A stretch of DNA of 20,021 bases from Candidatus Hydrogenedentota bacterium. GTDB taxonomy: Bacteria; Hydrogenedentota; Hydrogenedentia; Hydrogenedentales; SLHB01. The notes under the pieces are model-generated. The model had not been told where the DNA came from. It saw only the letters and a program-made list of their open reading frames with translations, and did no database searches. Every line of letters begins with the position of its first letter. Positions within the stretch are counted from its first letter, which is position 1. Of this stretch, positions 520-20,021 are shown in pieces. Made by a program: the position numbers and the translations under genes. The DNA lies in contig BTWA01000062.1 of assembly GCA_045863295.1 (NCBI GenBank), forward strand, positions 1-20,021, written 5' to 3'.

Positions 520-877
520 TGAAAACGGTAGTTCCCATTGCCGCTCGTTGTAGTCAGGTCTCCTGACCGGCCACGCCACGTGACCAGCATGGTCTCATCC
601 TGCAGCAATCACCAGAGATCCTCGCGACCAGACTCCGTACAGGGTCGAAAGACGCATTCAGAACTGATAGTCTCTACCCATTAACAGGGCTGTGTTGCAC
701 TTCCAAGGCAATGAGGGTACGTTAAAAAACAAAACAAGGGTAAATCCTTGAAATTCATATTAAAAGCACTGTTCTGAAGCGATACATCAATCACTTCCGC
801 ATTCGATCCAAACGAGTTGAGGTAGATGCCCACTCAGAATGGTTTGCTTCCCTAGGGTTGTAATTCCGAGCCCGATG

Positions 878-894
878 TAACTACAATGTAGTTA
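878..894. promoter_or_regulatory. Inverted repeat TAACTACA-A-TGTAGTTA, probable antitoxin operator
   Basis: Perfect 8-bp arms with a 1-nt spacer, touching the brnT ATG at 894. This is the usual position for TA autoregulation. Confidence 0.6.
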
Positions 895-1181
895 TGAGCA
901 AGCTCCGCTTTACGTGGGATTCCAAGAAGGCTCTGAACAACGAGCGCAAGCACTGAATCTCATTCGAAGAAGCACGCTCCGTGTTTTATGACGAACATGC
1001 CGTGGAGTTCTATGACGACAAACATTCAGAGTGGGAAGACCGTTTCCTACTGCTTGGAATGAGCTCGCGACTGCGGCTGCTTATGATCTGCCACTGCTTT
1101 CGCGAATCCGGAGGGGTCATCCGTATTGTCTCCGCGCGCAAAGCAACCCAACGCGAATCCACCTACTATCGGAGAACATAA
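894..1181 (+). pseudogene. brnT: BrnT-family ribonuclease toxin interrupted by an in-frame TGA (954-956)
   Basis: ATG 894 reads MSKLRFTWDSKKALNNERKH*ISFEEARSVFYD...EDRFLLLG...IRIVSARKAT, in frame with the 981..1181 ORF. The family consensus at the stop is KHG(I/V)SFEEA, so GGA to TGA is the simplest explanation. Confidence 0.85.
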
Positions 1182-1182
1182 A

Positions 1183-1401
1183 ATGAAAGCCGAATACGAT
1201 CTATCTAAGATGAAGGCTCGGAAAAATCCATACGCCCGGAAACTCAAAAAACAAGTCACGCTGCGTCTGGACCCGGAAGTCTTGGACTATTTCAAGCAAA
1301 AATCAGCGGAAAGCGGCATCCCCTATCAAACCCTGATTAACCTCTACCTTCAGGACTGCCGTGCGACAGGCCGCAACCTCAAACTAAAGTGGGCGCCTTG
1401 A
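1183..1401 (+). CDS. brnA: BrnA-family antitoxin (ribbon-helix-helix type)
   Basis: MKAEYDLSKMKARKNPYA..LKKQVTLRLDPEVLDYFK....GIPYQTLINLYL. GGAGA RBS at 1171-1175; starts 1 nt after the toxin stop. Confidence 0.85.
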   Translation: MKAEYDLSKMKARKNPYARKLKKQVTLRLDPEVLDYFKQKSAESGIPYQTLINLYLQDCRATGRNLKLKWAP

Positions 1402-1525
1402 AGCAATCATGCGAAACTCCCGTTAATAACAAAGCATGGCTTTTCAAGCATGTATTCCCAAAGTGGGTACTTGGGAGCACGTTGAAATCGACGACAAACT
1501 GCCCCCAACGACGCAAGGAGGAATC

Positions 1526-3529
1526 ATGTACAAATCGCGATGCACGCTCCGGGCCTTGGCGTTCCTGGCATTCGCATGTGCGGCCGCGGCGCTCGGGCCG
1601 CGGGCATGGTGTTCCACACCGCTAATCCCGAGATCGGCATTGTTCAGCGAGCCGGACGTAACGGTGGTGCGCCTATCCCCCGACGGTGCATCCGCGGCCT
1701 ATATCGCCATGAACGACACCCATCCCGAATTACGCGTCAGAACTCTTGCGGACGCATCCGATGACCGCCGAGTCGACGAAGGCGAACCGGGCAGTGCGCA
1801 GAACCTTTGGTGGACGCACGAAGAAAATCCCAGTGTGATCGCTCAGCGGACTGTCCCCGATGGCACGCATGTGTTCCTGCATCGCCTGGACGATTCCGAG
1901 GCCATCGACCTGACGCCCATCGCAGGGGCGTCGGCGGCCCTCGCAAAAACCAGTCGCGCGCTTCCGGGTCGCGTCGTCGCCGAAATCAGCGACACGAAGT
2001 CGAACGCGCGCGAACTCTGGACCATCGATCTTGCTTCGAATGAGCGAACGCTGCTCGCCGACATGAAGGGCCTGTCGCGGATTCATCTTGACGATCAACT
2101 TCAGCCGCGCGTGGCGGAGCGGAACCGGTTGGATGGGAGCATAGAGTTGTCGCGTCGCACCGAATCGGGCTCCTGGGAGTCGTTCCGCACCATGGGGCCG
2201 GACCTTGCGCAAGTGCTAGGCGTAGTCGGACTACGCGGGAATGGCGAGTCGCTCTATGTCGTGGACAACGCCGGTCGCGATCGCTCGGCCTTGTTCGAAG
2301 TGAATGTGAGCACGGGCGAAGACCGACTCCTCGCAGAAGACCCCGACGCGGATATCCGCCCGGTCGCAATGCTGGATCAGGCGACGGGCGAAGCCCTTTC
2401 TGCTTCCGCGAACTTCGGCGCGCTGCGCCGATACCACCTTCGCAAGGACGTGAGCGATGGGTTTTCGTTTCTGCAACGCGCGTTGAACTGCGACGTTGGC
2501 GTGAGCGATCAGAGCGCGGACGGGCGGACCTGGCTCGTCGTGCCCATGGACGGCGGCCCAACACGGTACTTCGTTTACCAGCGCGACAGCGAGAAGGTGG
2601 CTCCCCTAGTGCCCATGTACAAATCCCTGGACGGCCACGCATTTGGACGCCGCGTGAACCGGGTCGTCGAAGTCCGGGATGGCATGCGATTCCCTGTTCA
2701 CGTCTATCTGCCGCCTTCGGAAAAGGGCGACCTGCCCGCGAAGCCCCTCCCCACGATGATCTACGTGCACGGTGGACCGAGTGTCGCGTACCCCTGGGAT
2801 TCGTGGATCACGAATCGCAACCTTCAATTGCTTGCCGATCGCGGGTATGCGGTCGTTCGCGTGGAATTCCGCGGCGCGGGCGGCATGGGCAAGAAGGTGT
2901 GGGAAGCGGGCGCGTTCGAGTGGGGCGGCGCGGCGTACCATGATGTGCTCGACATTACCGTCTGGGCCGTTCGCGAAAAGATCGCCGACCACGATCGCAT
3001 CGGCATCTTTGGCTGGTCCTACGGCGGCTACATGGCGATGCACGCACTCACCCAACCCGACAATCCCTACGCCTGCGGCATTTCAATGTACGGCCCCTCC
3101 GACCTCGGCGTGCTGCTCGCACAACACAAACTCTTCTTCCGCAAGCGCATCGCCGATGAACGCACCCCCGAGGGAACCCGCATCCTTCACGATCAATCCC
3201 CCATTAACCACGTCCAAAACCTGTCCGCGCCCCTGCTCATGACCAATGGCGGCGAAGACCGCATCGTCCCGCACAACACCCAGGCCGATCCCTTCGTCGA
3301 AAAGGCGAAAGCCGCCGGAGCCCCGCTGACCTACCTCTACTATCCCGACGAGCCGCACGACTATCGCCGGGCGGAAAATTGGATTTCCTTCTGGGCAGTC
3401 GCCGAAAAACTCCTCGCCGAACACCTCGGCGGACAATGCGAACCCTACGGCAACGACCTGCGCGGAGTAACATCAATGGAAGTAGTCGCGGGCGAGCAAT
3501 TCGTACCGGGGCTGGCGGAAGCGCTATAG
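1526..3529 (+). CDS. Secreted S9 family (prolyl oligopeptidase/acylaminoacyl peptidase-like) serine peptidase
   Basis: AAGGAGGA RBS before ATG 1526, then a signal peptide. Contains VHGGP, the GWSYGG nucleophile elbow, GGEDRIV (Asp) and DEPH (His), with a propeller-like N-terminal region. Confidence 0.9.
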   Translation: MYKSRCTLRALAFLAFACAAAALGPRAWCSTPLIPRSALFSEPDVTVVRLSPDGASAAYIAMNDTHPELRVRTLADASDDRRVDEGEPGSAQNLWWTHEENPSVIAQRTVPDGTHVFLHRLDDSEAIDLTPIAGASAALAKTSRALPGRVVAEISDTKSNARELWTIDLASNERTLLADMKGLSRIHLDDQLQPRVAERNRLDGSIELSRRTESGSWESFRTMGPDLAQVLGVVGLRGNGESLYVVDNAGRDRSALFEVNVSTGEDRLLAEDPDADIRPVAMLDQATGEALSASANFGALRRYHLRKDVSDGFSFLQRALNCDVGVSDQSADGRTWLVVPMDGGPTRYFVYQRDSEKVAPLVPMYKSLDGHAFGRRVNRVVEVRDGMRFPVHVYLPPSEKGDLPAKPLPTMIYVHGGPSVAYPWDSWITNRNLQLLADRGYAVVRVEFRGAGGMGKKVWEAGAFEWGGAAYHDVLDITVWAVREKIADHDRIGIFGWSYGGYMAMHALTQPDNPYACGISMYGPSDLGVLLAQHKLFFRKRIADERTPEGTRILHDQSPINHVQNLSAPLLMTNGGEDRIVPHNTQADPFVEKAKAAGAPLTYLYYPDEPHDYRRAENWISFWAVAEKLLAEHLGGQCEPYGNDLRGVTSMEVVAGEQFVPGLAEAL

Positions 3530-3563
3530 CCGTTCAAGGTTGCATACACCACAAGCCACCTAT

Positions 3564-3617
3564 TTGGACTGCGGTGGAGAAGCTGACAAGCGTAGACACC
3601 GCTTTGGCTGTCTACGC
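3564..3617. repeat. REP-like intergenic palindromic element
   Basis: GCGTAGACA (3590-3598) and TGTCTACGC (3609-3617) form a perfect 9-bp inverted repeat, overlapping an alternative GCGGTG (3571-3576)/CACCGC (3597-3602) pairing. There is no U-tract. Confidence 0.4.
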
Positions 3618-3726
3618 CAAAAACATCCAACGTGGCGTCCACCCACGTCACGCACGGCGACCGGCCGGTCTCCTCTAGATGTGTTTTAGTACAGACTCGT
3701 ACGATGTGCGCGGCGGGAACTATAAA

Positions 3727-3754
3727 CTCGTTCCCTAGCTCCCGCTTGGGAACG
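3727..3754. repeat. REP-like hairpin CTCGTTCCC-TAGCTCCCGCTT-GGGAACG
   Basis: CGTTCCC/GGGAACG 7-bp arms with an inner AGC/GCT pairing. It resembles dispersed CGTTCCC..GGGAACG intergenic repeats I recall from other bacteria. Confidence 0.5.
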
Positions 3755-3800
3755 CGCTCTTGAAAAGCTCTGCTTTGATCTTAGGAAAGCCCACCCTAAG

Positions 3801-3962
3801 ATGCCGAACATTACCCCGGAAACACAAGTGGGATTTGAACCAGCGAGCAAGAAACACATGGGTTCGAGCATTGACGATTTCCTTAAGGAGGAAGGCATCT
3901 TCGAAGAGACGCAGGCGCAGGCGATCAAGGAAGTCGTCGCGCGGCAACTCGCCGAGGGTTAG
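3801..3962 (+). pseudogene. Truncated XRE/HigA-like antitoxin N-terminus
   Basis: ...SKKHMGSSIDDFLKEEGIFEETQAQAIKEVVARQLAEG* matches the H(I/M)GSSFDDFL.EEG...A.K.V.AWQL N-terminus of a family of HTH antitoxins. It stops at TAG 3960-3962 before the HTH, at the edge of the AT-rich cassette. Confidence 0.65.
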
Positions 3963-4022
3963 AAAAAGGTGGCCCTCCCCTATTTACTCTATTTACTCCC
4001 CTCTCAGTTTATCCCCGGTTTA

Positions 4023-6314
4023 TCACTGTTTATCCTCCTCAGCGTATTGAGCTAACCAAATGGAAGCCTCCTCCGGATAAGTCTCAGCAATACCCTTTTT
4101 CATGTCTTCATAAGCTATAGCATTCATTCGCCACAGGTTAATCCATATGGCGGCATCTACAGGGAGATCGGTATGATACCACACCCGCCTGTCACTCGGC
4201 TCAAGTAATAGCACGTATCGAACCGCTGTAGGATCAAAACGTTCCCTCTGGGATTGTATTATTTTGAGAGCGTTGTCCAAGGATTCCCCAGCACCCTTGG
4301 GATTCCCTTGAAGATACTGACCAATGGCTTTGTTTAGTTCGTATAGTGGTTCATATTCTAACTCCAAAGCCAATGTAAGATTTACGATTGCCTCTTCGAT
4401 TTGTCCAAGTAAAATCTGGCAAAATCCCAAATTGTTTCGAATGCTTGACATTTCTTTCTTTTTAAGCATCTCCTCGAAATCAGTTGCGCAACCTTGTATG
4501 TCACCACCTACGAATTTTGCGACTGCGCGATCCATATCCACAGTAGCGCCAATCACTCGTATGATGGTCGACCCTGTAATTTGGCCAATTTCCGCCAACT
4601 CCGATTTCGTTGGAACCTCCCATCGGACAAAATCCTCTATCTCGAGCTCAATATTACTTGCCGCAAGCACAGATTTATGCTTAACAACCCAGTTTTGGAT
4701 TCTCTCCGCGCAAATTTCATCACCAAGTCGCTCTATGTATCTCATGCGACAGCTCTGACGCCCGGCGGGAGTCTCCATATGGAGCGTAACGTCCGCAGCA
4801 TGTTTTGCGTCAACATGTAGCGAGATTACCACAAGACTTGTGATCTCACGAACACCCTCATCTTCCTTTTTGAGCGGCACCCCAGAACGGAATAAATCGA
4901 TAGCCTGTCTAGATTTGTCCTCGACTTGCAGTGGGAGCGTTGCTAGGGAGTTAATGTCTTTTGCAATTGCTCCGGTAACAATTCTCCGCAATTGTTCGCC
5001 AAACGAAGCATCATCCCAAGCCCATCGATTACTTCGTTCAACCTCTACGAAGGATTTCCAAAATCCAGACGTCAACGGAGAGCCAACGATATCAAGCCGC
5101 TCCTCAGTTTCCGTAAGCCCCGCTTCATATAATTCATGATAACCTTCCGTCAGATCGGACGCTATTTTTTCGCGTTCGTTTTGCGAAAGGACTGCTCCAC
5201 TTCTAAGTTCCCGGGAGAGAATGGAGACACAAATATTTTCCTCTCGAGTAAGTTTCCTTCTCGATACCCACTTCGACTCAAAAAGCAATTTATCTGGGAG
5301 ACGCTCGACTGCGTTCAAGACTTTGTCGGTATTAGCAGGAGAATTTGTTCGATACTCTCGCAAAACCTCACGGAATACGCGGGGCGCAAGGGCCATCTTG
5401 CTAGAAGATCCATTTTCAACACTTCGATACATATGATGACAATATAATTGTATTTCGTCAGGCGCCCCGCCACAGAGATCATGAAGCTCTTCAATACTAT
5501 TCATTTGCGGCGCAATAGCCTCACGTACTTTCTCTGAAAGGGCGTCGTAAACGAGGTCGAAAGTATCAGTCCAGCTAGTAAAGGGTTTTACTTCGACGCG
5601 GTGAAATTGGCGTGGTATCGGAGAAAAAACCTCCGAAATCGCGGGAAATACCGCATCCGTACCAGCCAGAATAAGTGAACAACTATCAACTACTTGGAAG
5701 ATGTTACGAAACATCTGTAGGAGCGAAACATTCTTTCCCAAGCAGTCCGCTTCGTCAATCAAAAGAGCGATGCCGAAATATTCTCTACGTTTGAGTTCTG
5801 CTAGACAGGCTTGAAAATCATTCACTACCAGCGAGTCAGGACATTCAAAGCCCTCGATCGGTCCTTGGTGGCAGGAGAATACATATGGCACCTGCAAAAC
5901 CGCATGCTTCAGACTTCCTGGCTGACGAGCATGTAGCATTCTCAGAATTTCGGAATAGATACCGTCCTCGACACCTCCCCAACATCCAACGCGAACCATT
6001 GACAAAGCTAGCGTTTGGTATAGATCGTGCCAAAATCTGCCTTGAGAATTGGCCTTAAGTTCATTCATATCCAATCGAACAGGCAACAATTTCAATTCCA
6101 CGGCGATTGACTCTGCGCCATTCAGGAGACTTGTTTTACCAACGCCTCGTTGACCTATTAGTGCAAGGTGAGGACTTTGACCTGCGACCGTCAAGTTTAA
6201 ATAATATTGAATTGTCTTAAGTTCGACCGCCCTTCCAGCTAGTTCCTCGCGTCTCCTAATGGGAGAGCGCTTAAATGGATTCGGAGGAAAATTGGTCTTT
6301 ATTTGTGTCTTCAC
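4023..6314 (-). CDS. STAND-class P-loop NTPase (AAA_16-like) with C-terminal TPR repeats
   Basis: N-terminal NPF and LAGRAVEL (hhGRxxE), Walker A GQRGVGKTS, Walker B IALLIDEAD, GxP motif LCGGAP, and TPR-like NNLGFCQILLGQIEEAIVNLTLAL and LNKAIGQYLQGNPKGAGESLDNAL. GTG start overlaps the upstream TGA (GTGA) and is preceded by GAAAGGTGA. Confidence 0.85.
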   Translation of the reverse strand: MKTQIKTNFPPNPFKRSPIRRREELAGRAVELKTIQYYLNLTVAGQSPHLALIGQRGVGKTSLLNGAESIAVELKLLPVRLDMNELKANSQGRFWHDLYQTLALSMVRVGCWGGVEDGIYSEILRMLHARQPGSLKHAVLQVPYVFSCHQGPIEGFECPDSLVVNDFQACLAELKRREYFGIALLIDEADCLGKNVSLLQMFRNIFQVVDSCSLILAGTDAVFPAISEVFSPIPRQFHRVEVKPFTSWTDTFDLVYDALSEKVREAIAPQMNSIEELHDLCGGAPDEIQLYCHHMYRSVENGSSSKMALAPRVFREVLREYRTNSPANTDKVLNAVERLPDKLLFESKWVSRRKLTREENICVSILSRELRSGAVLSQNEREKIASDLTEGYHELYEAGLTETEERLDIVGSPLTSGFWKSFVEVERSNRWAWDDASFGEQLRRIVTGAIAKDINSLATLPLQVEDKSRQAIDLFRSGVPLKKEDEGVREITSLVVISLHVDAKHAADVTLHMETPAGRQSCRMRYIERLGDEICAERIQNWVVKHKSVLAASNIELEIEDFVRWEVPTKSELAEIGQITGSTIIRVIGATVDMDRAVAKFVGGDIQGCATDFEEMLKKKEMSSIRNNLGFCQILLGQIEEAIVNLTLALELEYEPLYELNKAIGQYLQGNPKGAGESLDNALKIIQSQRERFDPTAVRYVLLLEPSDRRVWYHTDLPVDAAIWINLWRMNAIAYEDMKKGIAETYPEEASIWLAQYAEEDKQ

Positions 6315-7084
6315 AAAGTCACCTTTCTCAATTCGATTACGGCTTGCTGGACACGTTCTGCTAGGCTATTGTCTTCGCAAAAGTGCAGTCGACGTCCTGC
6401 AGAGCCAACGCCAGTAGGAAGTGCATTGTAGATCTTGAGCAATGACACTGCTCGGTCAACGGTATTGCGTTCAAAACCGGCTAACACGTCATTGGCCCAC
6501 CAATATTGTATTACTGCCGTTTCATAGATATCGGGAATCTCTACGAAATCCGGGATGCCTGGTAAAAGACAAACAATTACCTCAAATGCTTGTATTAGCC
6601 CGTCTGCGACTTCGTGTTGAGTAATTCCTGTATCAGGTCTAGCCAGCAATCTTGTCAATTCACTTGCACATAGTGCTGTTTCAAGTTGGGCGTAGAGAGT
6701 TTCAATGGTTTTAAGGCCGACGGATCCTACCGGCCTTGAATGGCCGACTGCGTTCCGAGGAGGTAGGATGTTTTCTAATTGCTTCAGAAATGCCTCGCCA
6801 CCTAACTTCTGAATCAATTCTTGCGCTGGCTTTTGCCTTAATAACGTAAGGAGTTCGCCAAAAGTAAGGTAATATAGTGGTCCTAAACGCAGAAAGTTGA
6901 ACTGCGGGCGAGCTTCCTCCCTTTGAGAATCTTTGACCTTCTTGAGGAGCTCTCCCGGCAGGTTTTTTCGCCAGCCAACTCCATATTTAGACTCAAAGGC
7001 GATCTTCAAGCACTCGCGCATTGCTATCTCAATGCGAAGCAGTAGTCTATACGCCTGCTCATTTTCGTGCTCAAATGAAACCAT
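6311..7084 (-). CDS. Swt1-like HEPN domain protein (putative RNase)
   Basis: AYRLLLRIEIAMRECL....YGVGW...YLTFGEL...RNAVGHSR: intact Rx4H motif in a Swt1/Abi2-like helical pattern, followed by an unrecognised helical C-terminal half. Confidence 0.8.
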   Translation of the reverse strand: MVSFEHENEQAYRLLLRIEIAMRECLKIAFESKYGVGWRKNLPGELLKKVKDSQREEARPQFNFLRLGPLYYLTFGELLTLLRQKPAQELIQKLGGEAFLKQLENILPPRNAVGHSRPVGSVGLKTIETLYAQLETALCASELTRLLARPDTGITQHEVADGLIQAFEVIVCLLPGIPDFVEIPDIYETAVIQYWWANDVLAGFERNTVDRAVSLLKIYNALPTGVGSAGRRLHFCEDNSLAERVQQAVIELRKVTL

Positions 7085-7166
7085 AATTGACCGTTAACGC
7101 ACCTGCGTGTTTATTTTTGTCAAGCCTAAACATCGCCGCCGGACAAAAAGAGTGACTAGCCCCTCA

Positions 7167-7204
7167 ATTGTAGAATAGCACAGAAAGCGCTCGCGTCGCT
7201 TTCT
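7167..7204 (-). promoter_or_regulatory. Candidate promoter and operator for the HEPN-STAND operon
   Basis: On the minus strand, TGcTATTCT (7180-7172, extended -10-like) overlaps TACAAT (7172-7167). Directly upstream lies the inverted repeat AGAAAGCG-N7-CGCTTTCT (7182-7204). Confidence 0.35.
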
Positions 7205-7617
7205 CCCGTGGGATGAGCCATGGATCGGTAGGTCGAGTGGGCGTATTATCACATTAAGCCCGAGTCGAGATTCTCACGACACAATGTTGCGGGGCGGCGA
7301 GCAGTCGCCAGCACAAGTGATTCGACCCGGTGAGAATGTCGTAGCGCAAATACACCGCTCCTGTGTCGAAAACGACGGGGCTCAACGAGGGTGAAGTTGC
7401 GGCGTGACGCGATTCGGAGCGCTGTCTTGCCGCCGCCCACCATCAGCGGATCCGAACAGCATGACTCACTACGTTAGTTTCTCTTGATGCGCGGTACACC
7501 GCATATGCTGAGGTCGGCACTCTTGGAAGGCACAGGTTTAGGGAAGAGAATTCCAATGCACGAGAGCGGACGCGCGATGTTCACGGATCGCATCCTTCCT
7601 GCGGCGTGCCGCTAAGG

Positions 7618-8787
7618 ATGGGCGTGCGCACAACACGCGTGATCCATTGGCTCCACAAGTGGACAGGGCTGATCTCCGGTATCAACGTACTCATTCTCAG
7701 CGTGACGGGGTCGTATCTCGTCTTCGATGTGGATATCAATCGTGCCTTCGCAGCGCCGAAGGGGGCTGTGGTGCTGACGATTGATCCGCATGGGGCGACG
7801 CCGTATCAGACGGCGATTGACGGTATCGTGGCGCTGCACCCGAATGTAAAGCCTACGATGCTTTACCGCTCGAAGCACGAAGACAATAGTTACGATTTCG
7901 GCTTCGCGGGGGGCGAAGGGGCGGGGGCCTATCGACTGAATATGGTGACGGGCGAGGTGTATCCGGTTACCGCCGGGAAGGCCGCCGGATTCAATCGCTT
8001 TATTTTTATGTTGCACGATAATTTGTTTCTAGGGAAAACAGGGTCGATATTCCTCGGCGTGGTGGGCATTCTCTTTTTGGTTTCCACGGTGACGGGGATC
8101 TTCATCTATGGCCCCTTCATGAAACCGGCGCTGTCCGGGGTCTTGCGGTGGGATCGCGGCGCACGGCATTACACCGCCGAGTTGCACAAAATGCTCGGGT
8201 GCCTAAGCCTGGCGTTCAACGTGATCATTGGCGTCACAGGGACTGTGCTGACCCTGGCGATCATTGGTACGCGGGCGTGGTTTGGGACGGCGTTGTTGCA
8301 TGCGGCGGAGGGCGGCGCAGCGCTGCCCGCGGGCGCGCCGCTGCAAGCGGTGGACACGGTGATACAGCGTGGGGCGGCGATGCAACCCGGGCGCACGTTT
8401 TTCACCGTCACCTACCCGAGTTCGTTGCAGGGGCCGAACTTTTACTTTTGCGGCTATAATAAAAATGATTCCATCACGCGGGGCATCCCAGCGCCCATCC
8501 TGGTTCCGGTGACGCCGGGGGGCGATGTTCGGATCGTGCCGGTGCCGCTTTGGGTGAAAGCGACGTACTTGTGCATCCCCCTTCACTTTGGCGATTTTGC
8601 GGGATGGGGCATGAAAATCGTCTATTGCTTTTTCGGCCTGAGCTCCGGCGTCCTCAGTATTAGCGGGGCCATACTGAGCGTCATGGGATGGACCAAGCGC
8701 TGGCGCGTAGGCCGCCGCATGCGCCGCCGCGCGCGGAAGGGCCGGCCATTGGGATTAAGCGCCAAGACGGAAGGGCAGGAAGCATGA
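7618..8787 (+). CDS. PepSY-associated TM helix domain protein (FoxB/PiuB-like membrane protein)
   Basis: WLHKWTGL..G......SVTGS, MLHDNLFLG, ELHKMLG and PLHFGDFAG: four conserved His in TM helices. The start is uncertain (GTG 7606, ATG 7618, or GTG 7624 after AAGGA). Confidence 0.85.
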   Translation: MGVRTTRVIHWLHKWTGLISGINVLILSVTGSYLVFDVDINRAFAAPKGAVVLTIDPHGATPYQTAIDGIVALHPNVKPTMLYRSKHEDNSYDFGFAGGEGAGAYRLNMVTGEVYPVTAGKAAGFNRFIFMLHDNLFLGKTGSIFLGVVGILFLVSTVTGIFIYGPFMKPALSGVLRWDRGARHYTAELHKMLGCLSLAFNVIIGVTGTVLTLAIIGTRAWFGTALLHAAEGGAALPAGAPLQAVDTVIQRGAAMQPGRTFFTVTYPSSLQGPNFYFCGYNKNDSITRGIPAPILVPVTPGGDVRIVPVPLWVKATYLCIPLHFGDFAGWGMKIVYCFFGLSSGVLSISGAILSVMGWTKRWRVGRRMRRRARKGRPLGLSAKTEGQEA

Positions 8788-11753: not shown

Positions 11754-12165
11754 CCCGCTTTGTGCAAAACGCTGAACGCGCGCGGCGTGCGAAATGCTCA
11801 TCCAGAAGGGTCTGGGTGTGAAACGCCAAGGAGTTTTCACGCACACACGGTACTTGCATCTGTTATTGGGGCAAAGCCGTGAAATATCCGGGCCAACCGG
11901 TCAATCCCTGGGTAGTCCTGATTTGAATGGGTGTGGTAGAATGGCCGAGGAATGGCGCTTGCCGAGAGCCCGGAATCATTGAGGCAGGTGTCGCCGCATT
12001 GGGGCCGTCCGGGAGTCGCCCAATTGCTTTCCGCCGCATCCCCGCTGCGGAGAATGGATTGCGCCCAAAATGTGTTACCCTTACCTGTATGCGCCGGTTG
12101 TGCGCTTGCTTCCTGATCCTGGGCACGAAATCTGGGTAACCCGTATATTCCAAGCGGAGGTCATC

Positions 12166-12903
12166 ATGGAAAACACACGTCGGGACTTCTTTAAATCGAC
12201 TACGGGCATTGCGGCCGCGGCAGCCATCGCCGGCGCCCCCTTTGCCTTCACCGGTTCGGCCGCGGCCCAAGAAAGCGCCGGCGCGCTCACCGACCATCAA
12301 CTCCCCCCTCTTCCCTACGACTACAACGCGCTTGAACCCTACATCGACGAACAGACCATGAGACTGCATCACGACAAACATCACCTCGGCTACGTCAACG
12401 GCCTGAAGGCGGCCGAGGCCGCTCTGGCCAAGGCGCGCGCCGCCGGGGATTTCGCGCTCATCGAATATTGGAGCAAGAAGGCCGCGTTTCATGGCGGCGG
12501 ACACTTCCTGCACACCATGTTCTGGGAAATCATGGCCCCCAACGGCAAAGGCGGCGGCGGTGAACCCACCGGCGCCCTGGCCGATCAGATCAAGCGAGAC
12601 TTCGGCAGCTTCGCCGCATTCAAGGCCCAATTCTCCGCGGCCGCCAAAGGCGTCGAGGGCAGCGGCTGGGCGTTGCTCCACTACCGCCCGGTCGATGATC
12701 GGCTGATCGTGTTGCAAGCCGAAAACCAACACAAGCTCACCGGTTGGAACAGCGGTCCCGTCCTGGGAATCGACGTGTGGGAACATGCCTACTACTTGAA
12801 GTACCAGAACGATCGCGGCAAGTACGTGGACGAATGGTGGAACGTCGTGAACTGGACCAAGGTCGGCGAAAGCGTCGCGTTTTTGAAGCAGTTGGCGGGC
12901 TGA
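12166..12903 (+). CDS. sodA: Fe/Mn superoxide dismutase with twin-arginine signal peptide (probably Mn-type)
   Basis: GGAGG RBS and a TRRDFFK Tat motif with an AAA-Q cleavage site. Contains LPPLPYDYNALEPYI, LHHDKHH, GGGHFLH and the DVWEHAYY signature. GGGH and ENQ favour Mn. Confidence 0.9.
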   Translation: MENTRRDFFKSTTGIAAAAAIAGAPFAFTGSAAAQESAGALTDHQLPPLPYDYNALEPYIDEQTMRLHHDKHHLGYVNGLKAAEAALAKARAAGDFALIEYWSKKAAFHGGGHFLHTMFWEIMAPNGKGGGGEPTGALADQIKRDFGSFAAFKAQFSAAAKGVEGSGWALLHYRPVDDRLIVLQAENQHKLTGWNSGPVLGIDVWEHAYYLKYQNDRGKYVDEWWNVVNWTKVGESVAFLKQLAG

Positions 12904-13137: not shown

Positions 13138-14079
13138 ATGCTCGCTCGAGTCACAGCCCTGGCCGTCCTCTGCGGCATCATCGCATCGTGTTCCAACCCG
13201 TCGACCAACGACGCCGCCGGCGCAGGTCCGCGGGACTCCGGCGCTCCACTGAAAATCACGGCCACGACCGGCATGATTGCCGATGCCGCCCGGATAGTCG
13301 GTGGCGACCATGTCGCCATTACCGCGCTGATGGGCCCCGGGGTCGACCCGCACCTGTACAAAGCAACCCAGGGTGACCTCGACGCCCTTGCCAACGCCGA
13401 TCTGGTCCTTTACAACGGCTTGCACCTGGAAGGCCGCATGGCGGACGTGTTGGTGAAAATGGCGTCCCGCGTAAAGACGGTGCAGATCACCGATGCCATC
13501 CCGCAGGAATTGCTGCGCGAACCCCCGGAGTTCCAGGGCCACTACGATCCCCACGTGTGGTTCGACGTATCGCTGTGGTCCAGGGCGGTCGAGCGTGTTC
13601 GCGATGCCCTCATCGAGGTGGATTCCGCGAACGCCGATGCCTACCGCGCAAACGCGGATGCCTACCTGAAAGAATTGATGGAATTGCACGAATACGCCAA
13701 GGCCCAGTTGGCCACTATCCCGGAATCCGGGCGCGTGTTGATCACCGCGCACGATGCATTCGGGTATTTCGGCCAGGCCTACGGACTTGAAGTCATGGGG
13801 CTGCAAGGCATCAGCACCGCCGCGGAATTCGGGCTGCAGGACATCGAACGTCTTGTGAACATCGTGGTGGATCGCAAGATCAAAGCGGTTTTCATCGAAA
13901 CGTCGATATCGCCCAAATCCATTGAAGCGCTCATACAGGGCGTCAAAGCCAAGGGTCACGAAGTGGCCATGGGCGGACAGTTGTACTCCGACGCGCTGGG
14001 CGAGGCGGGCACGCCCGCGGGTACGTATGTGGGCATGGTGCGTCATAATGTCGATACCATTGTAGGAGCACTCAAATGA
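13138..14079 (+). CDS. troA: Mn/Zn/Fe ABC transporter substrate-binding lipoprotein
   Basis: AAGGAGA RBS and IAS-C lipobox. [25 protein letters not shown] and YSDALG supply the three His plus Asp ligands. Confidence 0.92.
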
Positions 14080-14879
14080 GCAATCCTGCGGTCTCGACCG
14101 CCCCACCTCCTATCGAAGTCCACGATCTCACGGTGGCGTACCACCATCGTCCGGTCTTGTGGGACATCGATCTTCATTTCCCGGAGGGCAAGCTGGTGGC
14201 CGTGGTCGGGCCTAACGGCGCGGGAAAAAGCACGCTTATCAAGGCCGTGATGGGATTGGTGCCGTTGGCCTCGGGCCATGTATCGATCTACGGCAAGCCC
14301 GCGAAGCAGGGTAAGACGAGCATTGCCTATGTGCCCCAGCGCGGCTCCGTCGATTGGGATTTCCCGACCACCGTCATGGACGTCGTGCTCATGGGGCGCT
14401 ACGGCCACTTGCCGCTGTTCGGCCGCCCCGGCAAGCGCGACAAGGAAATCGCACGCCAAAGCCTCGAGAAAGTGGGCATGGTCGAATTCGCGAACCGCCA
14501 GATTAGCCAACTCTCGGGCGGCCAACAGCAGCGGGTCTTTCTCGCGCGCGCACTCGCCGAACAAACGAAGATTTACCTCATGGACGAGCCGTTCGCCGGA
14601 GTCGATGCCGCCACCGAACGCGCCATTGTGAATCTCCTGCGCGATCTGCGCGCCATGGGCAGCACGTTGGTCGTAGTGCATCACGACCTCAATACCGTGC
14701 CCGACTATTTCGACTGGGTCCTGTTGTTGAATCTCCGGTCGGTGGCGTTCGGGCCGGTTGCGGAAGTGTTCACGCAGGAGAACCTGCAGAAAACCTACGG
14801 CGGGCGCCTCAACCTTCTGACGGATGTCGGCGAGAAGCTCAGTCGGCAGGAATGGAAGCGCAGGAATGAATTGGCCTAG
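14076..14879 (+). CDS. troB: Metal ABC transporter ATP-binding protein
   Basis: [40 protein letters not shown] overlap with troA. Confidence 0.93.
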
Positions 14880-16236
14880 TTTCCAGTGGTTGGACCTCGT
14901 GGGCAGCGCCGCAAGCCAGGACAGACTTCCGCCCTGGCTGGCGTTCTTTACGTTTTCGTCGATCAACGTCATCTACGTTCTCCTGGGATGCATGGTCCTC
15001 GGATCCACGGCGGGTGTCGTGGGCTGTTTTGCCTTCCTTCGCAAGCGCTCGCTCATTGGCGATGCCCTCGCCCACGCCGCGTTGCCGGGCGTTTGCGCCG
15101 CGTTCATGCTGACCGGTTCCAAAAACCCGCTCGTCATGCTCGCGGGTGCAACCGCGGCCTGCTGGGCCGGCGCGTACAGCGTGGAGTGGATCGTGCGCCA
15201 CACGCGCTGCAAGGAAGACAGTGCGCTCGGCATGGTCTTATCCGTCTTTTATGGACTGGGTATCCTGATGCTCACGCACATTCGCAAATCCGGCGATGCG
15301 GCCCAGGCCGGTCTCGACAAGTACTTGCTTGGCCAGGCCGCATCGCTGGTGGGCAAGGACTTCGTCGTCATCGCGGCCGTGGGCTCGCTCTTGCTCGTGG
15401 CCATCGCACTTGCCTACAAGGAATTGAAAGTCATCTCGTTCGATCCGGAATTCGCGGAGTCGGCCGGCATGCCCCGGCGCGCGCTTGAAATCGGACTCGC
15501 CACGCTCATCGTATTGGCTGTGGCCATCGGTTTGCAGGCCGTCGGCGTGGTCTTGATGGCGGCGTTGCTGGTCACACCCGCCGCCGCGGCGCGCTATTGG
15601 ACCGACCGGCTTGGGGTGATGCTGTTGCTCGCGGGCGTATTCGGCGCGTTGAGCGGCGCGACCGGCGCCTACGTCAGTTATCTCAGCGTGCAAATGCCCA
15701 CCGGTCCGTGGATCGTGGTTTCGATTACCACCCTGTTCCTCGTGTCGTTGTTTTTCGCAAGCAAGCGCGGCGTTGCCTGGCGGTATGTGCGCTACTTTCG
15801 CTTCCGCCGGAAGACGGCGGAAGAAAATGTGCTTCGCACGCTGTACGTGTTGGGCGAAGCCGAGCAATCCTGGGGCGGCGGACGGTCGCACGGCGATATT
15901 CTGCGATTCCGAAACATGTCCGCGGGGTACCTGCGCCACACGTTGAACCGGCTGCGCCGGAAGAAACTCGTTCGCGAAACGGAGAACGGCCTGTACGCGT
16001 TGAACGACGACGGCTTGAAGTCGGCCGCGCGCATTACCCGCGTGCACCGGTTGTGGGAGCTGTATCTCACCCGCAAGCTGGAGCTCGCGCCGGATCACGT
16101 CCACGACGACGCCGAGGAGATCGAACATATCCTTACGCCTGATCTGGAAGCCCGGCTGGCGGCGGCGCTCGATGAACCGGCCGTGGACCCGCACAGCAAA
16201 CCCATTCCAGCGCCCATGGAAGGCGGTCACGCATGA
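14866..16236 (+). CDS. troC: Metal ABC transporter permease fused to a C-terminal DtxR-like domain (YtgCR-like)
   Basis: ABC-3 permease motifs ([26 protein letters not shown]), then EENVL...HRLWELYL...HDDAEEIEH...DPHSKPIP. The start overlaps the troB end. Confidence 0.88.
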
Positions 16237-18140: not shown

Positions 18141-18575
18141 CCCATCGGAATCGCGATTGCCTACGCGCTAAACCACTGGGCCGCGCTCGCGCGCTTGCTC
18201 GACGACGGCATCATTCCGCCACTGGCGGAACAACAACGCCGCCGAACAAGCCGTCCGCGGAATTGCTATTGGACGCAAGAACTGGCTATTCCTGGGAAGC
18301 GACAACGGAGGACGCGCCGCCGCCATCCACTACACCCTCATCCAGACCGCCAAACGACACGGCATCGACCCCTATGGATATACCATGGGCGACAATGGCT
18401 GCAACGAAGTGAAGCCATGAAAGCCTGCGCAACGTCCTCCTCCGCCTCACCACCGAACCCAACAACGACCTCCGCCAACTCTTCCCCGGCCAATGGAAAG
18501 CCCCAATCCAAGGCTGAGCGCACCCGTTGCACCAAACCCGTCACGTAGGTACCATGGTGGCTACCGGACGCTTAC
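18141..18575 (+). mobile_element. tnpC: Decayed IS66-family element, 3' end of tnpC plus right terminal inverted repeat
   Basis: Three frames join to PIGIAIAYALNHWAAL..LDDG / NNAAEQAVRGIAIGRKNWLFLGSDNGG.AAA..YTLIQTAKRHGIDPYGY / LRNVL...LFPGQW. Stop at 18515-18517; terminal GGACGCTTAC (reverse complement GTAAGCGTCC) at 18566-18575. Confidence 0.88.
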
Positions 18576-18655
18576 CTGATTTCCAAGTCAGCAACGAGCC
18601 GTGTTGCACTTCAACTTTGAATCCGCGCGCCCTAATTAGTTAAACTTTTAGTGTG

Positions 18656-18997
18656 CTACTCATATATAATTATGAATAAAGGGTAAAAACAAAAGATCAA
18701 CGCTAGTGTCAAGATCAACAACGCAACCTTTACCCAACGGTGATTAATGGTGACGCAAAAAAAGAAAACAAATAGTAGCAGTATCAAATACAAAAAACGT
18801 AAAAGCCCATAAATTACTACATCCACCGGACGTATTTTATCAATCACTCCAATCGGTCCATAGTACACTTGGGCGTAGCGTTGTGGTAGCTCTGACAAAC
18901 TCCCAAGTGTCAAAGCAGTGGAGAATATGGACATCATAGTAACACATAAGCCCAACACAAAAAACACTTGCTTCCATCGTACTCTGAAATTCTTCAT
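18656..18997 (-). CDS. Small three-TM membrane protein, putative Rhs immunity protein
   Basis: ATG overlaps the Rhs stop (TGATG). AT-rich, with three hydrophobic segments, in the position expected for an immunity gene. Confidence 0.6.
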   Translation of the reverse strand: MKNFRVRWKQVFFVLGLCVTMMSIFSTALTLGSLSELPQRYAQVYYGPIGVIDKIRPVDVVIYGLLRFLYLILLLFVFFFCVTINHRWVKVALLILTLALIFCFYPLFIIIYE

Positions 18998-20019
18998 CAC
19001 CACTCGATACCTGTGAGAAGGCTGAGAAAATCGTCACTTGGTGGCTTTCCTGGAATGTCATCTCCGGTTCCGCTATATGTTGTAATACCCAACAATGGCG
19101 TGCGCGCCCCCCATTTCATACAACCATATATTTTCCCCTTGTCGTTTCCCATTGCGCAGACGGCGCAAGTCTCAAAGTCCTGACTGCCTGGAACATTCAG
19201 TGACCCGATGATATTCGGAAAACCGGGATCATCCTCCATAGTGGCACCAGTAGGTCGGCCTTTTTGAAGATGAAGGGGATAAAATGGTTGACTCTTGTCA
19301 TCTGTGTCCAAGTGCCAGTCCCATTGCGGATTGCCAAACTTTCCCAAGCCAAAAGGACGACTCCGGACCATCTGTATGAATGCAATTTTTTCGCAATCAC
19401 AATCATCGGGTCCCCGATAATAGATACCTATACCGTCATACCCATTACCCGAAGCGCCGAACGAGTTGCCAGTAAGAAGTCCAAGTGGATCAAGTTCCGA
19501 TATTGGATTGCCATCACAGTATTCGTATGAATTTGTCCCCCCTATTAATCCCAGAGGATCGCGAGCGGTCCAGCGCGCGCTGATGGACGAAAAAGTTCGA
19601 TAGGCAGCCAAATATAAACCTGCCGTTCTATCCCATGCCATCCCCCCATAGGACACCAACTCGTCGGATGCGTTGTGGCTAGCCAATCCATAGCTGCTGA
19701 CATTGAATAATTGTGTGGTCAGACCTGCATCAGACTGGATCCCAGTAATCGTACTATTGTGATCTCGTATGAAGAAATTCCATTCGGAATTCATCGACGC
19801 CAAATTTTTGACTGCCGAGAGTTGGGGGCCGCAATAAACGAACGAGTCTGCACCCGCCTCCACAGAAATACACTTGTAACCCTTTCCATACCGATACTGC
19901 GTATGATCAGAATCGTGAGTACGTACTCGGCGTTTGCCATTCGCCCCATACTCATACGTCACATCCCCTTCGCCGGGGAAGTTGCTGTCGACGTTGTAGA
20001 GCATGCTTCCGTAGCGGTA
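18997..20019 (-). CDS. RHS repeat-associated core protein, 3' part, with a variable C-terminal domain
   Basis: Frame is open to the window edge (YRYGSMLY...). Contains TYEYGANGKR and RW..RDPLG..GGTNSYEYCDGNPISELDPLGL (PxxxxDPxGL), then a 159-aa C-terminal extension. Confidence 0.88.
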   Translation of the reverse strand, partial: YRYGSMLYNVDSNFPGEGDVTYEYGANGKRRVRTHDSDHTQYRYGKGYKCISVEAGADSFVYCGPQLSAVKNLASMNSEWNFFIRDHNSTITGIQSDAGLTTQLFNVSSYGLASHNASDELVSYGGMAWDRTAGLYLAAYRTFSSISARWTARDPLGLIGGTNSYEYCDGNPISELDPLGLLTGNSFGASGNGYDGIGIYYRGPDDCDCEKIAFIQMVRSRPFGLGKFGNPQWDWHLDTDDKSQPFYPLHLQKGRPTGATMEDDPGFPNIIGSLNVPGSQDFETCAVCAMGNDKGKIYGCMKWGARTPLLGITTYSGTGDDIPGKPPSDDFLSLLTGIEW

Positions 20020-20021
20020 GG

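Follow-up and report, generated by a model that had tools for sequence, protein, structure and literature searches.

A candidate two-gene anti-phage module of a HEPN protein and a STAND-like NTPase with relatives in type I restriction-modification operons

What might two adjoining minus-strand genes in a patch of lowered GC content do for a Candidatus Hydrogenedentota bacterium? The genes occupy positions 4023 to 7084 of a 20,021-nucleotide (nt) stretch of contig BTWA01000062.1 (assembly GCA_045863295.1), hereafter the window, and encode a predicted HEPN protein (gene 1) and a P-loop NTPase (gene 2). An initial annotation had proposed an undescribed, split relative of the Avs (antiviral STAND) systems, in which a STAND NTPase with C-terminal tetratricopeptide repeats (TPRs) and no effector of its own switches on a Swt1-like HEPN RNase in trans. 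We followed up this proposal by homologue searches, structural comparison and an examination of related loci. We think it fairly probable that the pair is a mobile, co-translated two-gene conflict module, most likely an anti-phage system of the abortive-infection type. However, because 17 of 47 related loci lie in or beside a type I restriction-modification (R-M) operon, we regard the pair as R-M-embedded cargo, with PrrC as its nearest functional analogue, and not as a free-standing Avs derivative. The two genes and their junction are laid out as follows (aa, amino acids).

6311–7084, minus strand: gene 1 (P0001), ATG start, 257-aa HEPN protein with a C-terminal helical domain (open reading frame and translation)
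4023–6314, minus strand: gene 2 (P0002), GTG start, 763-aa P-loop NTPase with a variable C-terminal predicted sensor region (open reading frame and translation)
6311–6314, minus strand: 4-nt GTGA start/stop overlap, made of the GTG start of gene 2 (6314–6312) and the TGA stop of gene 1 (6313–6311)

Both open reading frames (ORFs) are real genes and not chance frames, since gene 1 has 154 homologues among near-length proteins and gene 2 at least 164, all at E ≤ 1e-3. The 763-aa reading of gene 2 from its GTG codon is correct because homologues of 745–785 aa, which align across 97–100% of the protein, are full-length; the public gene call (P0122, 457 aa) begins at M307 and omits the whole nucleotide-binding domain. 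The ORFs, their overlap and the ribosome-binding site AAGGTGA, which ends 4 nt before the GTG, were all verified as first described. We read the GTGA overlap as translational coupling, by which the pair would be co-translated.

To what extent is the pairing conserved? We assembled 47 related loci (designated by L numbers), 9 from a one-genome-per-species scan and 38 from a metagenome scan, in which the partner gene was found by tblastn. In 45 of them the gene 1 homologue is followed immediately, on its own strand, by a homologue of gene 2, and the two loci without a visible partner (L047 and L048) are cut by a contig end within or right after the HEPN gene. Therefore, the homologues do stay adjacent. 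The 4-nt overlap, as ATGA or GTGA, recurs in 35 of the 41 loci with both gene ends readable, and consecutive NCBI accessions show the same adjacency in metagenome-assembled genomes of Ignavibacteria and Didemnitutus. The pairing is kept down to 34–46% identity for gene 2 and 38–42% for gene 1 in L007 and L008. The initial annotation had also raised the prospect of HEPN-STAND fusions, which did not materialize: 785 aa is the greatest length among the best 120 of the 164 homologues of gene 2, and 403 aa among the best 150 of 480 gene 1 profile matches from a search of 1.84 billion representatives. The gene 1 profile matches include a second tier of proteins of 255–290 aa (E 1e-27 to 1e-14). A search for longer forms returned a single protein of 671 aa (P0389), which joins HEPN residues ~1–216 to the NTPase at Walker B; it was rejected as a true fusion, being a deletion product of L034 that has no Walker A. 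Prediction of a complex between NTPase residues 1–743 and the HEPN protein, with their own alignments, scored 0.00 in two runs without controls and speaks neither for nor against binding.

The neighborhoods of the related loci place many of the pairs in a recognizable setting. Type I R-M (Hsd) genes, as detected by tblastn, Pfam and PADLOC, flank the pair in 17 of the 47 loci, so that homologues do occur near defence genes. In L002, L003, L004 and L009 the gene order is hsdM, hsdS, HEPN, NTPase, hsdR, with clear Pfam assignments for the Hsd proteins (N6_Mtase/HsdM_N, Methylase_S and HSDR_N/SWI2_SNF2/T1RH-like_C). These four are among 13 loci with hsdS upstream and hsdR downstream, the others being L006, L012, L014, L016, L025, L027, L031, L033 and L034. 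L028 and L040 have hsdS upstream and are cut on the downstream side, L018 retains a short hsdR remnant downstream, and in L015 an EcoEI-type hsdR lies upstream of the pair instead (PADLOC REase_I, 9.2e-218). In clean operons hsdS ends ~7–18 nt before the HEPN start and hsdR begins ~27–41 nt after the NTPase stop. Where long alignments exist, HsdR and HsdM of the host systems are 53–81% and 53–88% identical, respectively, to those of L002, and the R-M systems hosting the pair all belong to one lineage. The same slot between hsdS and hsdR is occupied by prrC in the E. coli prr locus. A preprint by Payne et al. (bioRxiv 10.1101/2024.01.29.577857) states that PrrC occurs almost only inside type I R-M operons, that defence systems abound among the genes nested in operons of the type I R-M, BREX, DISARM and Hachiman kinds, and that a gene nested in a defence operon is often a defence system in its own right.

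Not every copy has this setting. No Hsd gene was found in seven loci with at least 1 kb on both sides (L005, L007, L008, L011, L030, L043 and L045), nor on the single long-enough side of five others (L001, L017, L024, L036 and L047); 18 of the 47 were too short to judge. Absence was judged by tblastn with the L002 Hsd proteins and also by Pfam scans of the flanking ORFs in L005, L007, L008, L011, L017, L022–L024, L030, L036, L042, L043 and L045.

Several of the related loci are rearranged or carry additional genes. In L034 (4025–6040), L043 (9001–11470) and L018 (1032–3071), in-frame or near-frame deletions have joined the HEPN gene to an internal part of the NTPase gene, and L034 and L018 retain short remnants of hsdR or hsdS. 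In L042 (946–3463) a minus-strand ORF of 387 aa is inserted between the remnants of the cassette. The gene 2 homologue of the delta-proteobacterial locus L008 (8776–10386) matches only residues 9–435, within an ORF of 536 aa, and its C-terminal sensor half may have been replaced, truncated or too diverged for alignment. The R-M operon of L016 (638–9478) has RhuM upstream and Fic and Schlafen/AlbA_2-HATPase_c_4 proteins after the pair, and its hsdR is reduced to an N-terminal remnant. In L004 (3432–7402) a DUF559 (Vsr-like endonuclease) segment is inserted in hsdM, and the space from hsdM to the pair includes a DDE transposase; L045 has an Mrr-like enzyme as further cargo near the pair.

Gene 1 encodes the putative effector, for which the following parts can be distinguished.

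6641–7084, minus strand: HEPN domain, residues 1–148, Abi2/Swt1 clade (structure matches, sub-threshold Pfam, PDC-M34B)
6740–6757, minus strand: Rx4H catalytic motif RNAVGH, R110–H115 (read from the sequence)
6314–6640, minus strand: C-terminal four-helix-bundle domain, residues 149–257, family-specific (model helices 156–256; generic bundle matches with Z 6–8)

The homologues of gene 1 are nearly all 254–264 aa long and are unnamed or called 'hypothetical protein', none with a precomputed Pfam domain. The AlphaFold2 model (mean pLDDT 88.3) is all-helical and consists of two domains. In an exhaustive VIA-align comparison with 48,161 chains, the top match was PbAbiF (8vz6_B; Z 9.2, root-mean-square deviation (rmsd) 3.1, 135 residues), which covers model residues 2–144 and is the only listed match on the N-terminal domain; the others cover residues 154–257 and are generic four-helix bundles. 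In the ESM Atlas the nearest named structural cluster is 'Swt1-like HEPN' (TM 0.77, residues 1–143), and the clusters nearest by features carry HEPN_Swt1, with scores of 0.83 that are to be taken as leads only. A gene 1 profile found no match among PDB sequences at E ≤ 1. Pfam has no real match to the window protein, and over 27 family members all matches were sub-threshold: Abi_2 in seven (best E 0.017) and HEPN_Swt1 in two (best E 0.051). Abi2/AbiD/AbiF and Swt1-like HEPN domains are placed in one clade in the accessible part of Anantharaman et al. 2013 (PMC3710099); because of this clade and the PbAbiF and Atlas matches, we assign gene 1 an Abi2/Swt1-clade HEPN domain followed by a family-specific four-helix domain. 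The Rx4H motif is intact, as the initial annotation had stated: R110, N111, H115 and R117 are invariant in all 27 aligned homologues (alignment A1), as is the block LGPLYYL at 67–73. Together with the fold, this invariance upholds the description of gene 1 as a Swt1-like HEPN protein, a predicted RNase. The C-terminal half also holds invariant residues (W195, W196, F204, Y219, G225 and R232; n = 27), and its mean pairwise column identity is 0.44, vs. 0.63 for the HEPN domain.

Gene 2 encodes the presumed sensor and switch, of which the parts are as follows.

5016–6248, minus strand: NTPase module, residues 23–433, comprising nucleotide-binding domain, helical lid and winged-helix/helical part (Foldseek, VIA-align)
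6132–6155, minus strand: Walker A GQRGVGKT, G54–T61 (read from the sequence; G54, G57, G59 and K60 invariant in 33/33)
5751–5765, minus strand: Walker B LLIDE, L184–E188 (read from the sequence; D187 and E188 invariant in 33/33)
5460–5468, minus strand: GxP motif in the helical lid, G283-A-P285 (read from the sequence; G283 and P285 invariant in 33/33)
4569–5015, minus strand: variable middle alpha/beta domain, residues 434–582 (secondary structure of the model)
4239–4568, minus strand: TPR region, residues 583–692 (profile vs. PDB; VIA-align)
4026–4238, minus strand: C-terminal tail domain, residues 693–763, variable (two short strands and three helices in the model)

The best 120 of 164 homologues of gene 2 span 457–785 aa, and some are annotated as 'ATP-binding protein' or 'TPR repeat protein'. 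Besides the Walker and GxP motifs, the N-terminal N12-P13-F14 and G27-R28-x-x-E31 (GRxxE) can be read directly, as had been noted before, and N12, P13 and R28 are invariant in all 33 sequences of alignment A2. Foldseek matched the model (mean pLDDT 88.0) to SSO1545 (2fna, 2.7e-7), Cdc6/Orc1 (2qby, 2.8e-7), a STAND-TPR protein (6mfv, 4.1e-7) and Avs3 (8dgc, 1.2e-5), and also to PAB2304 (2qen); SSO1545 and PAB2304 are archaeal MNS-type ATPases. VIA-align gave Orc/Cdc6 proteins Z 15–16.4, 2fna 15.0 (311 residues aligned), 2qen 14.7, MalT (8bob) 14.5, TnsC/MuB 13.3–14.2 and Avs3 13.3 (286 aligned). The NTPase fold starts at about residue 5–20 and leaves no N-terminal effector, which, with the length of the best 120 of 164 homologues (at most 785 aa), bears out the earlier view of a STAND-like NTPase without a fused effector. 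The C-terminal TPRs were likewise recovered: a family profile matched TPR proteins in the PDB at residues 590–690 (best E 9.7e-5), and model residues 590–752 superposed on the OGT TPR superhelix 1w3b with Z 14.7 (rmsd 2.5, 132 residues) and on 2fo7 with Z 14.5. Pfam TPR_1 reached 21.1 bits, under its cut-off of 27.8, and AAA_16 (24.1, cut-off 32.6), AAA_22 (26.3, cut-off 27), ATPase_2 (22.3, cut-off 33.2) and nSTAND6 (14.4, cut-off 27.7) were also sub-threshold. Mean pairwise column identity is 0.63 in the nucleotide-binding domain, 0.53 in the lid and 0.51 in the winged-helix part vs. 0.30 in the middle domain, 0.37 in the TPRs and 0.31 in the tail, so that variability in the C-terminal half is roughly double that of the NTPase module.

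How did the window come by its copy, which has no R-M partner? A search of the window flanks for Hsd remnants gave nothing better than E 1.1, and the window genome, which is 96% complete, has no HSDR_N match, the same search being positive in 8 of 14 control genomes. In this solo copy neither reading frame is broken and every invariant residue is present. Gene 2 was found in none of 40 related genomes, and the record titles of the loci name Planctomycetota, Verrucomicrobiota (three loci), Hydrogenedentota, Nitrosospira, Actinomycetota and a delta-proteobacterium. The AT-richer patch of the initial annotation is also present:

4001–7000, no strand: low-GC patch coinciding with both genes (GC 0.43–0.49 vs. 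~0.53–0.64 in adjoining 500-nt segments)

The window pair is thus a solo copy gained horizontally, as judged from its absence in the 40 relatives, the low-GC patch and the scattered phyla. Only one relative (G011) has a close homologue of the neighboring peptidase (83%), and because its synteny ends at ~3550 of the window and the right flank has no counterpart, no clean empty site could be defined. Contigs from four DNA runs compared with the window contained no joints and nothing that bears on presence/absence polymorphism.

We also inferred a quick maximum-likelihood phylogeny from 24 NTPases of nearly full length, leaving out loci with partial or split matches, on which 13 tips were labelled R-M, 8 solo (L023 and L024 on one-sided evidence only) and 3 unknown. 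The R-M and solo states require five changes on this tree, of which the starred branches force at least two, and the labels are not clearly more clustered than shuffled ones (83 and 64 of 500 shuffles were equally low). Therefore, from the interspersed states, it appears that the pair entered or left R-M operons several times. The window copy falls inside the main, mostly R-M-embedded clade. The deepest branches (L007, L045 and L005/L039) are solo or unknown, although L007 and L045 are long and their placement is unsafe. Because intact solo copies exist, including one in a genome without HSDR_N, and because solo and R-M copies are interspersed, the pair is probably autonomous.

How might such a module work? 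We read the NTPase as sensor and switch because its hydrolysis motifs are conserved and its repeat-containing C-terminal half is variable, and the HEPN protein as RNase effector because its Rx4H motif is invariant. We infer a defence function, RNase activity, an association of the two proteins, a trigger and an order of events. The STAND/Orc-Cdc6-type NTPase would sense through its fast-evolving C-terminal half, that is, the alpha/beta domain and the TPRs, and the AbiF/Swt1-like HEPN protein would stay inactive until a trigger arrives. Binding of the trigger would change the nucleotide or oligomeric state of the NTPase, this change would let HEPN domains pair into an active RNase, and cleavage of RNA would arrest growth of the infected cell. 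By analogy with Avs/NLR proteins and with catalysis by HEPN dimers we infer that the two proteins may bind each other, that the four-helix domain may serve as the docking surface and that oligomerization of the NTPase may bring HEPN domains together. Two triggers are conceivable: the variable C-terminal half of the gene 2 product could bind a phage protein, as in Avs, or an anti-restriction activity could disturb the co-encoded type I R-M complex, as for PrrC. The module usually resides between hsdS and hsdR in type I R-M operons of a single lineage; the window copy is solo and horizontally transferred. A more detailed scenario, possible but doubtful in our view, is that of a split NLR, in which a STAND-type sensor activates a separate HEPN RNase via the four-helix docking domain; it would have evolved as a guard of one type I R-M lineage, triggered by phage anti-restriction, and would also work alone after escape.

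Several observations weigh against an abortive-infection module of this kind. Neither protein meets any curated Pfam or NCBIfam cut-off, Foldseek found nothing in the PDB for the gene 1 model at E ≤ 0.001, and the HEPN structural match (Z 9.2) is moderate for a helical protein. STAND and Orc/Cdc6-type AAA+ proteins are effectively tied by structure as matches to gene 2 (Z 13.3–16.4 for both kinds), and the protein is therefore placed in the Orc/Cdc6-STAND neighborhood of AAA+; its GRxxE and GxP motifs and its repeat tail favour STAND. GRxxE and GxP are STAND hallmarks, GxP reportedly having been described as such by Leipe et al. in 2004. The window NTPase has no match to any PADLOC-DB v2 model at E ≤ 1, and its relatives show scattered weak matches (SngB in 4 of 33, mad8 in 3, PDC-M71B in 2, and also PtuA, BrxD and others). 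L018, L034, L042 and L043 have decayed by deletion or insertion and L006 has frameshifts. In the window no other recognized defence gene adjoins the pair, whose neighbors are a peptidase and a PepSY membrane protein. Finally, the window copy forms the longest terminal branch of its clade (0.8 vs. a median of 0.28), which could reflect relaxed constraint.

Three other explanations share part of this evidence. EcoprrI keeps PrrC inactive until T4 Stp releases it. The present pair might similarly be a guard of type I restriction that monitors the Hsd complex, responds to a phage anti-restriction protein or to lost Hsd function and unleashes the HEPN RNase as a second line, which we judge unlikely. 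Such a guard overlaps with the abortive-infection module, from which it differs in the trigger only, and it would leave the window copy an orphan without its guardee. The 13 loci with an occupied hsdS-hsdR gap and the four more with Hsd on one side agree with it, as do the tight operon spacing, the R-M embedding of PrrC reported by Payne et al. (10.1101/2024.01.29.577857; accessible portion) and the single R-M lineage, which suggests long co-inheritance as a five-gene unit. However, no Hsd gene lies beside the pair in the window or in the seven loci with sufficient sequence on both sides, and the window genome has no HSDR_N match, yet frames and invariant residues are intact. On the NTPase tree, moreover, R-M-embedded and solo copies are interspersed and the deepest branches are solo or unknown. 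Intact solo copies in genomes without Hsd favour autonomy; for the embedded copies, the guard idea retains some credit from their long co-inheritance with a single R-M lineage.

HEPN toxins with protein antitoxins are established, as in HEPN-MNT, and the pair could also be an addiction module of toxin-antitoxin type, in which the NTPase neutralizes a HEPN toxin and so stabilizes the R-M operon or island, with no sensing of phage. The tight coupling (the 4-nt overlap of 35 of 41 loci), the toxin-like HEPN gene standing first, the mobility and the patchy distribution are all points for this explanation. On the other hand, a 763-aa NTPase with conserved hydrolysis motifs and variable repeats exceeds known antitoxins by far in size and complexity, and the decayed L034 and L043 have lost parts of both genes, so that the putative antitoxin was not retained; we regard addiction as improbable. 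We give still less weight, and consider it very improbable, to an accessory pair of the type I R-M enzyme, acting for example in restriction alleviation or on RNA-DNA hybrids, or to a non-defence pair for RNA processing or regulation, neither of which would involve abortive infection. Co-inheritance with one R-M lineage would suit such a role, and DNA-associated ATPases of the Orc/Cdc6 and MuB/TnsC kinds are among the best structural matches of gene 2. However, solo copies without any Hsd gene are intact, the RNase motif is invariant, and the sporadic occurrence over phyla, with none found in the 40 relatives searched, is contrary to housekeeping. The addiction and the accessory or housekeeping explanations are thus the less likely ones, and abortive infection remains our preferred reading of the pair.

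The immediate neighbors of the pair in the window are a peptidase S9 gene of the prolyl-oligopeptidase family on the left (1436–3529, plus strand) and a PepSY_TM gene on the right (7606–8787, plus strand). The earlier statement that the pair runs opposite to all its neighbors holds for these two only. Gene 1 is preceded by an intergenic gap:

7085–7605, no strand: upstream intergenic region, 521 nt (no ORF of at least 80 aa wholly inside)

A minus-strand ORF (8016–7612) starts just past the right edge of this gap. In a promoter and terminator scan of 3400–7700 the counts were not above those of shuffles, with no promoter-like site in the upstream gap, and a search for a tRNA or att site found no tRNA in the window.

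Some further features of the window are described here for their own sake. The space that separates the 3' end of gene 2 from the peptidase gene holds a hairpin-forming element of ~52–56 nt (3727–3782; -21.2 kcal/mol, z -2.19). This element has 10 further copies, 80–93% identical, spread over seven more contigs of the genome, with a cluster of three on one contig (C1). Contigs from sludge metagenomes also contain it at high depth and with a variety of flanks, and it looks like a dispersed repeat of the REP (repetitive extragenic palindromic) or MITE (miniature inverted-repeat transposable element) kind. A BrnA/CopG-type antitoxin ORF (1126–1401, plus strand; Pfam 8.5e-11) lies on a low-GC stretch (0.49) in a block that extends upstream to ~859; because a homologous block is found in G011 on the other side of the peptidase gene, window positions 859–1424 are taken for a small mobile toxin-antitoxin cassette. 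A second low-GC stretch (0.43–0.50) at 18501–20021, which runs off the window, carries minus-strand ORFs at 18656–19003 and 18997–20004 with no Pfam match at E ≤ 0.01 and no PADLOC match at E ≤ 1e-5, and may be another acquired island. Elsewhere, an ABC-3 (Mn/Zn-type) permease is joined in one 470-aa ORF (14824–16236, plus strand) to a C-terminal Fe_dep_repr_C metal-binding/dimerization domain. Its operon also encodes ZnuA (13138–14079), an ABC ATPase (14076–14879), a second permease and a DtxR-type repressor, and upstream lies an Fe/Mn superoxide dismutase with a TAT signal (12070–12903).

If the pair is functional, it represents a distinct NLR-like architecture in which sensor NTPase and RNase effector are separate co-translated proteins, and the activation step would be experimentally separable by titration, by mixing of components and by solving a structure for every state. 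Since the pair recurs in the PrrC slot, it could be used to test directly if cargo embedded in R-M operons is a guard of the host system or a mere passenger. Cassettes found almost solely in uncultured lineages are missed by catalogues built on RefSeq isolates, the PADLOC PDC families among them. The pair is one of many embedded candidates and a good one for experiments.

Does the pair already have a name? As the initial annotation had supposed, it matches no named system in PADLOC-DB v2, NCBIfam or Pfam, NCBIfam release 20 naming neither gene, and NCBI calls homologues of the pair only 'hypothetical protein' and 'ATP-binding protein'. Full-text literature searches, the coverage of which did not extend to the PDC cassette lists of the Payne et al. 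preprint, found no HEPN and NTPase-TPR pair of this kind. The accessible portion of a 2026 census of 589 STAND clades (PMC13581612) makes no mention of such a HEPN partner, and six NCBI accessions of gene 2 homologues are absent from seven of its supplementary files, which are possibly incomplete.

The nearest catalogued family is PDC-M34, a name not mentioned in the literature searched. Its B component matches gene 1 (1.9e-5 for the window protein; 27 of 27 homologues, best 2.2e-9), over residues 9–120 only, so that the two have a similar HEPN domain. However, true PDC-M34B genes (~200–270 aa, E 1e-46 to 1e-73), which a search of 135 genomes from the window's phylum located in three, stand next to a small gene of ~180–215 aa; tblastn at E ≤ 0.01 found no NTPase like that of gene 2 there, and neither gene 2 nor its 32 relatives match PDC-M34A. 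PDC-M34 was thus rejected as the identity of the pair.

With Avs/AVAST proteins, gene 2 has in common a related P-loop NTPase fold (the Avs3 match given above), a variable C-terminal region of helical repeats and, presumably, a switch by ligand-induced oligomerization. It differs in that no effector is fused to its N-terminus, the candidate effector being a separate coupled gene, and in that its sensor region of ~330 aa is far shorter than typical Avs sensors. No Avs model of PADLOC-DB v2 matched gene 2 of the window at E ≤ 1 or 33 family members at E ≤ 0.01. On these three grounds AVAST membership is not supported, and from the R-M setting of the related loci we do not regard the pair as a free-standing Avs derivative.

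The HEPN domain resembles AbiF/AbiD (Abi2) proteins most, by its structural match to PbAbiF and the weak Abi_2 matches in 7 of 27 members, and Abi2/AbiF/AbiD HEPN proteins are listed as 'embedded in R-M operons' in the accessible part of Anantharaman et al. 2013 (PMC3710099). It differs from AbiF in its additional C-terminal four-helix bundle and its obligate NTPase neighbor. A non-coding RNA or type III antitoxin of the AbiF type was rejected: there are no direct repeats in 3500–7700 and no Rfam match upstream of gene 1, and the clean R-M loci leave only the ~7–18 nt after hsdS.

The comparison with PrrC/RloC (EcoprrI) concerns position and logic. In both cases a HEPN-type RNase and an NTPase lie in the hsdS-hsdR gap, as seen on both sides in 13 related loci, and the expected logic of a second, RNA-targeting line of defence is similar. 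The nuclease of PrrC follows an ABC-type ATPase within a single polypeptide. The present pair is instead spread over two genes, with an Orc/Cdc6-STAND-type NTPase that carries TPRs and a HEPN domain from the Abi2/Swt1 clade, and neither gene family matches the PADLOC models for PrrC or RloC. Although 17 of the 47 related loci share the R-M embedding of PrrC, the window copy has no R-M partner. By domain type alone, the likeness is to Npun_F6454-type proteins (PMC3710099, accessible part), which consist of Swt1-like HEPN, STAND ATPase, TPR and S1 domains and so combine the same three domain kinds (HEPN, STAND ATPase and TPR), in single polypeptides there and in two genes here. The pair is therefore best filed among the R-M-embedded HEPN abortive-infection modules, a kind already known, to which it would add a split NLR-like sensor in an unnamed two-gene cassette.

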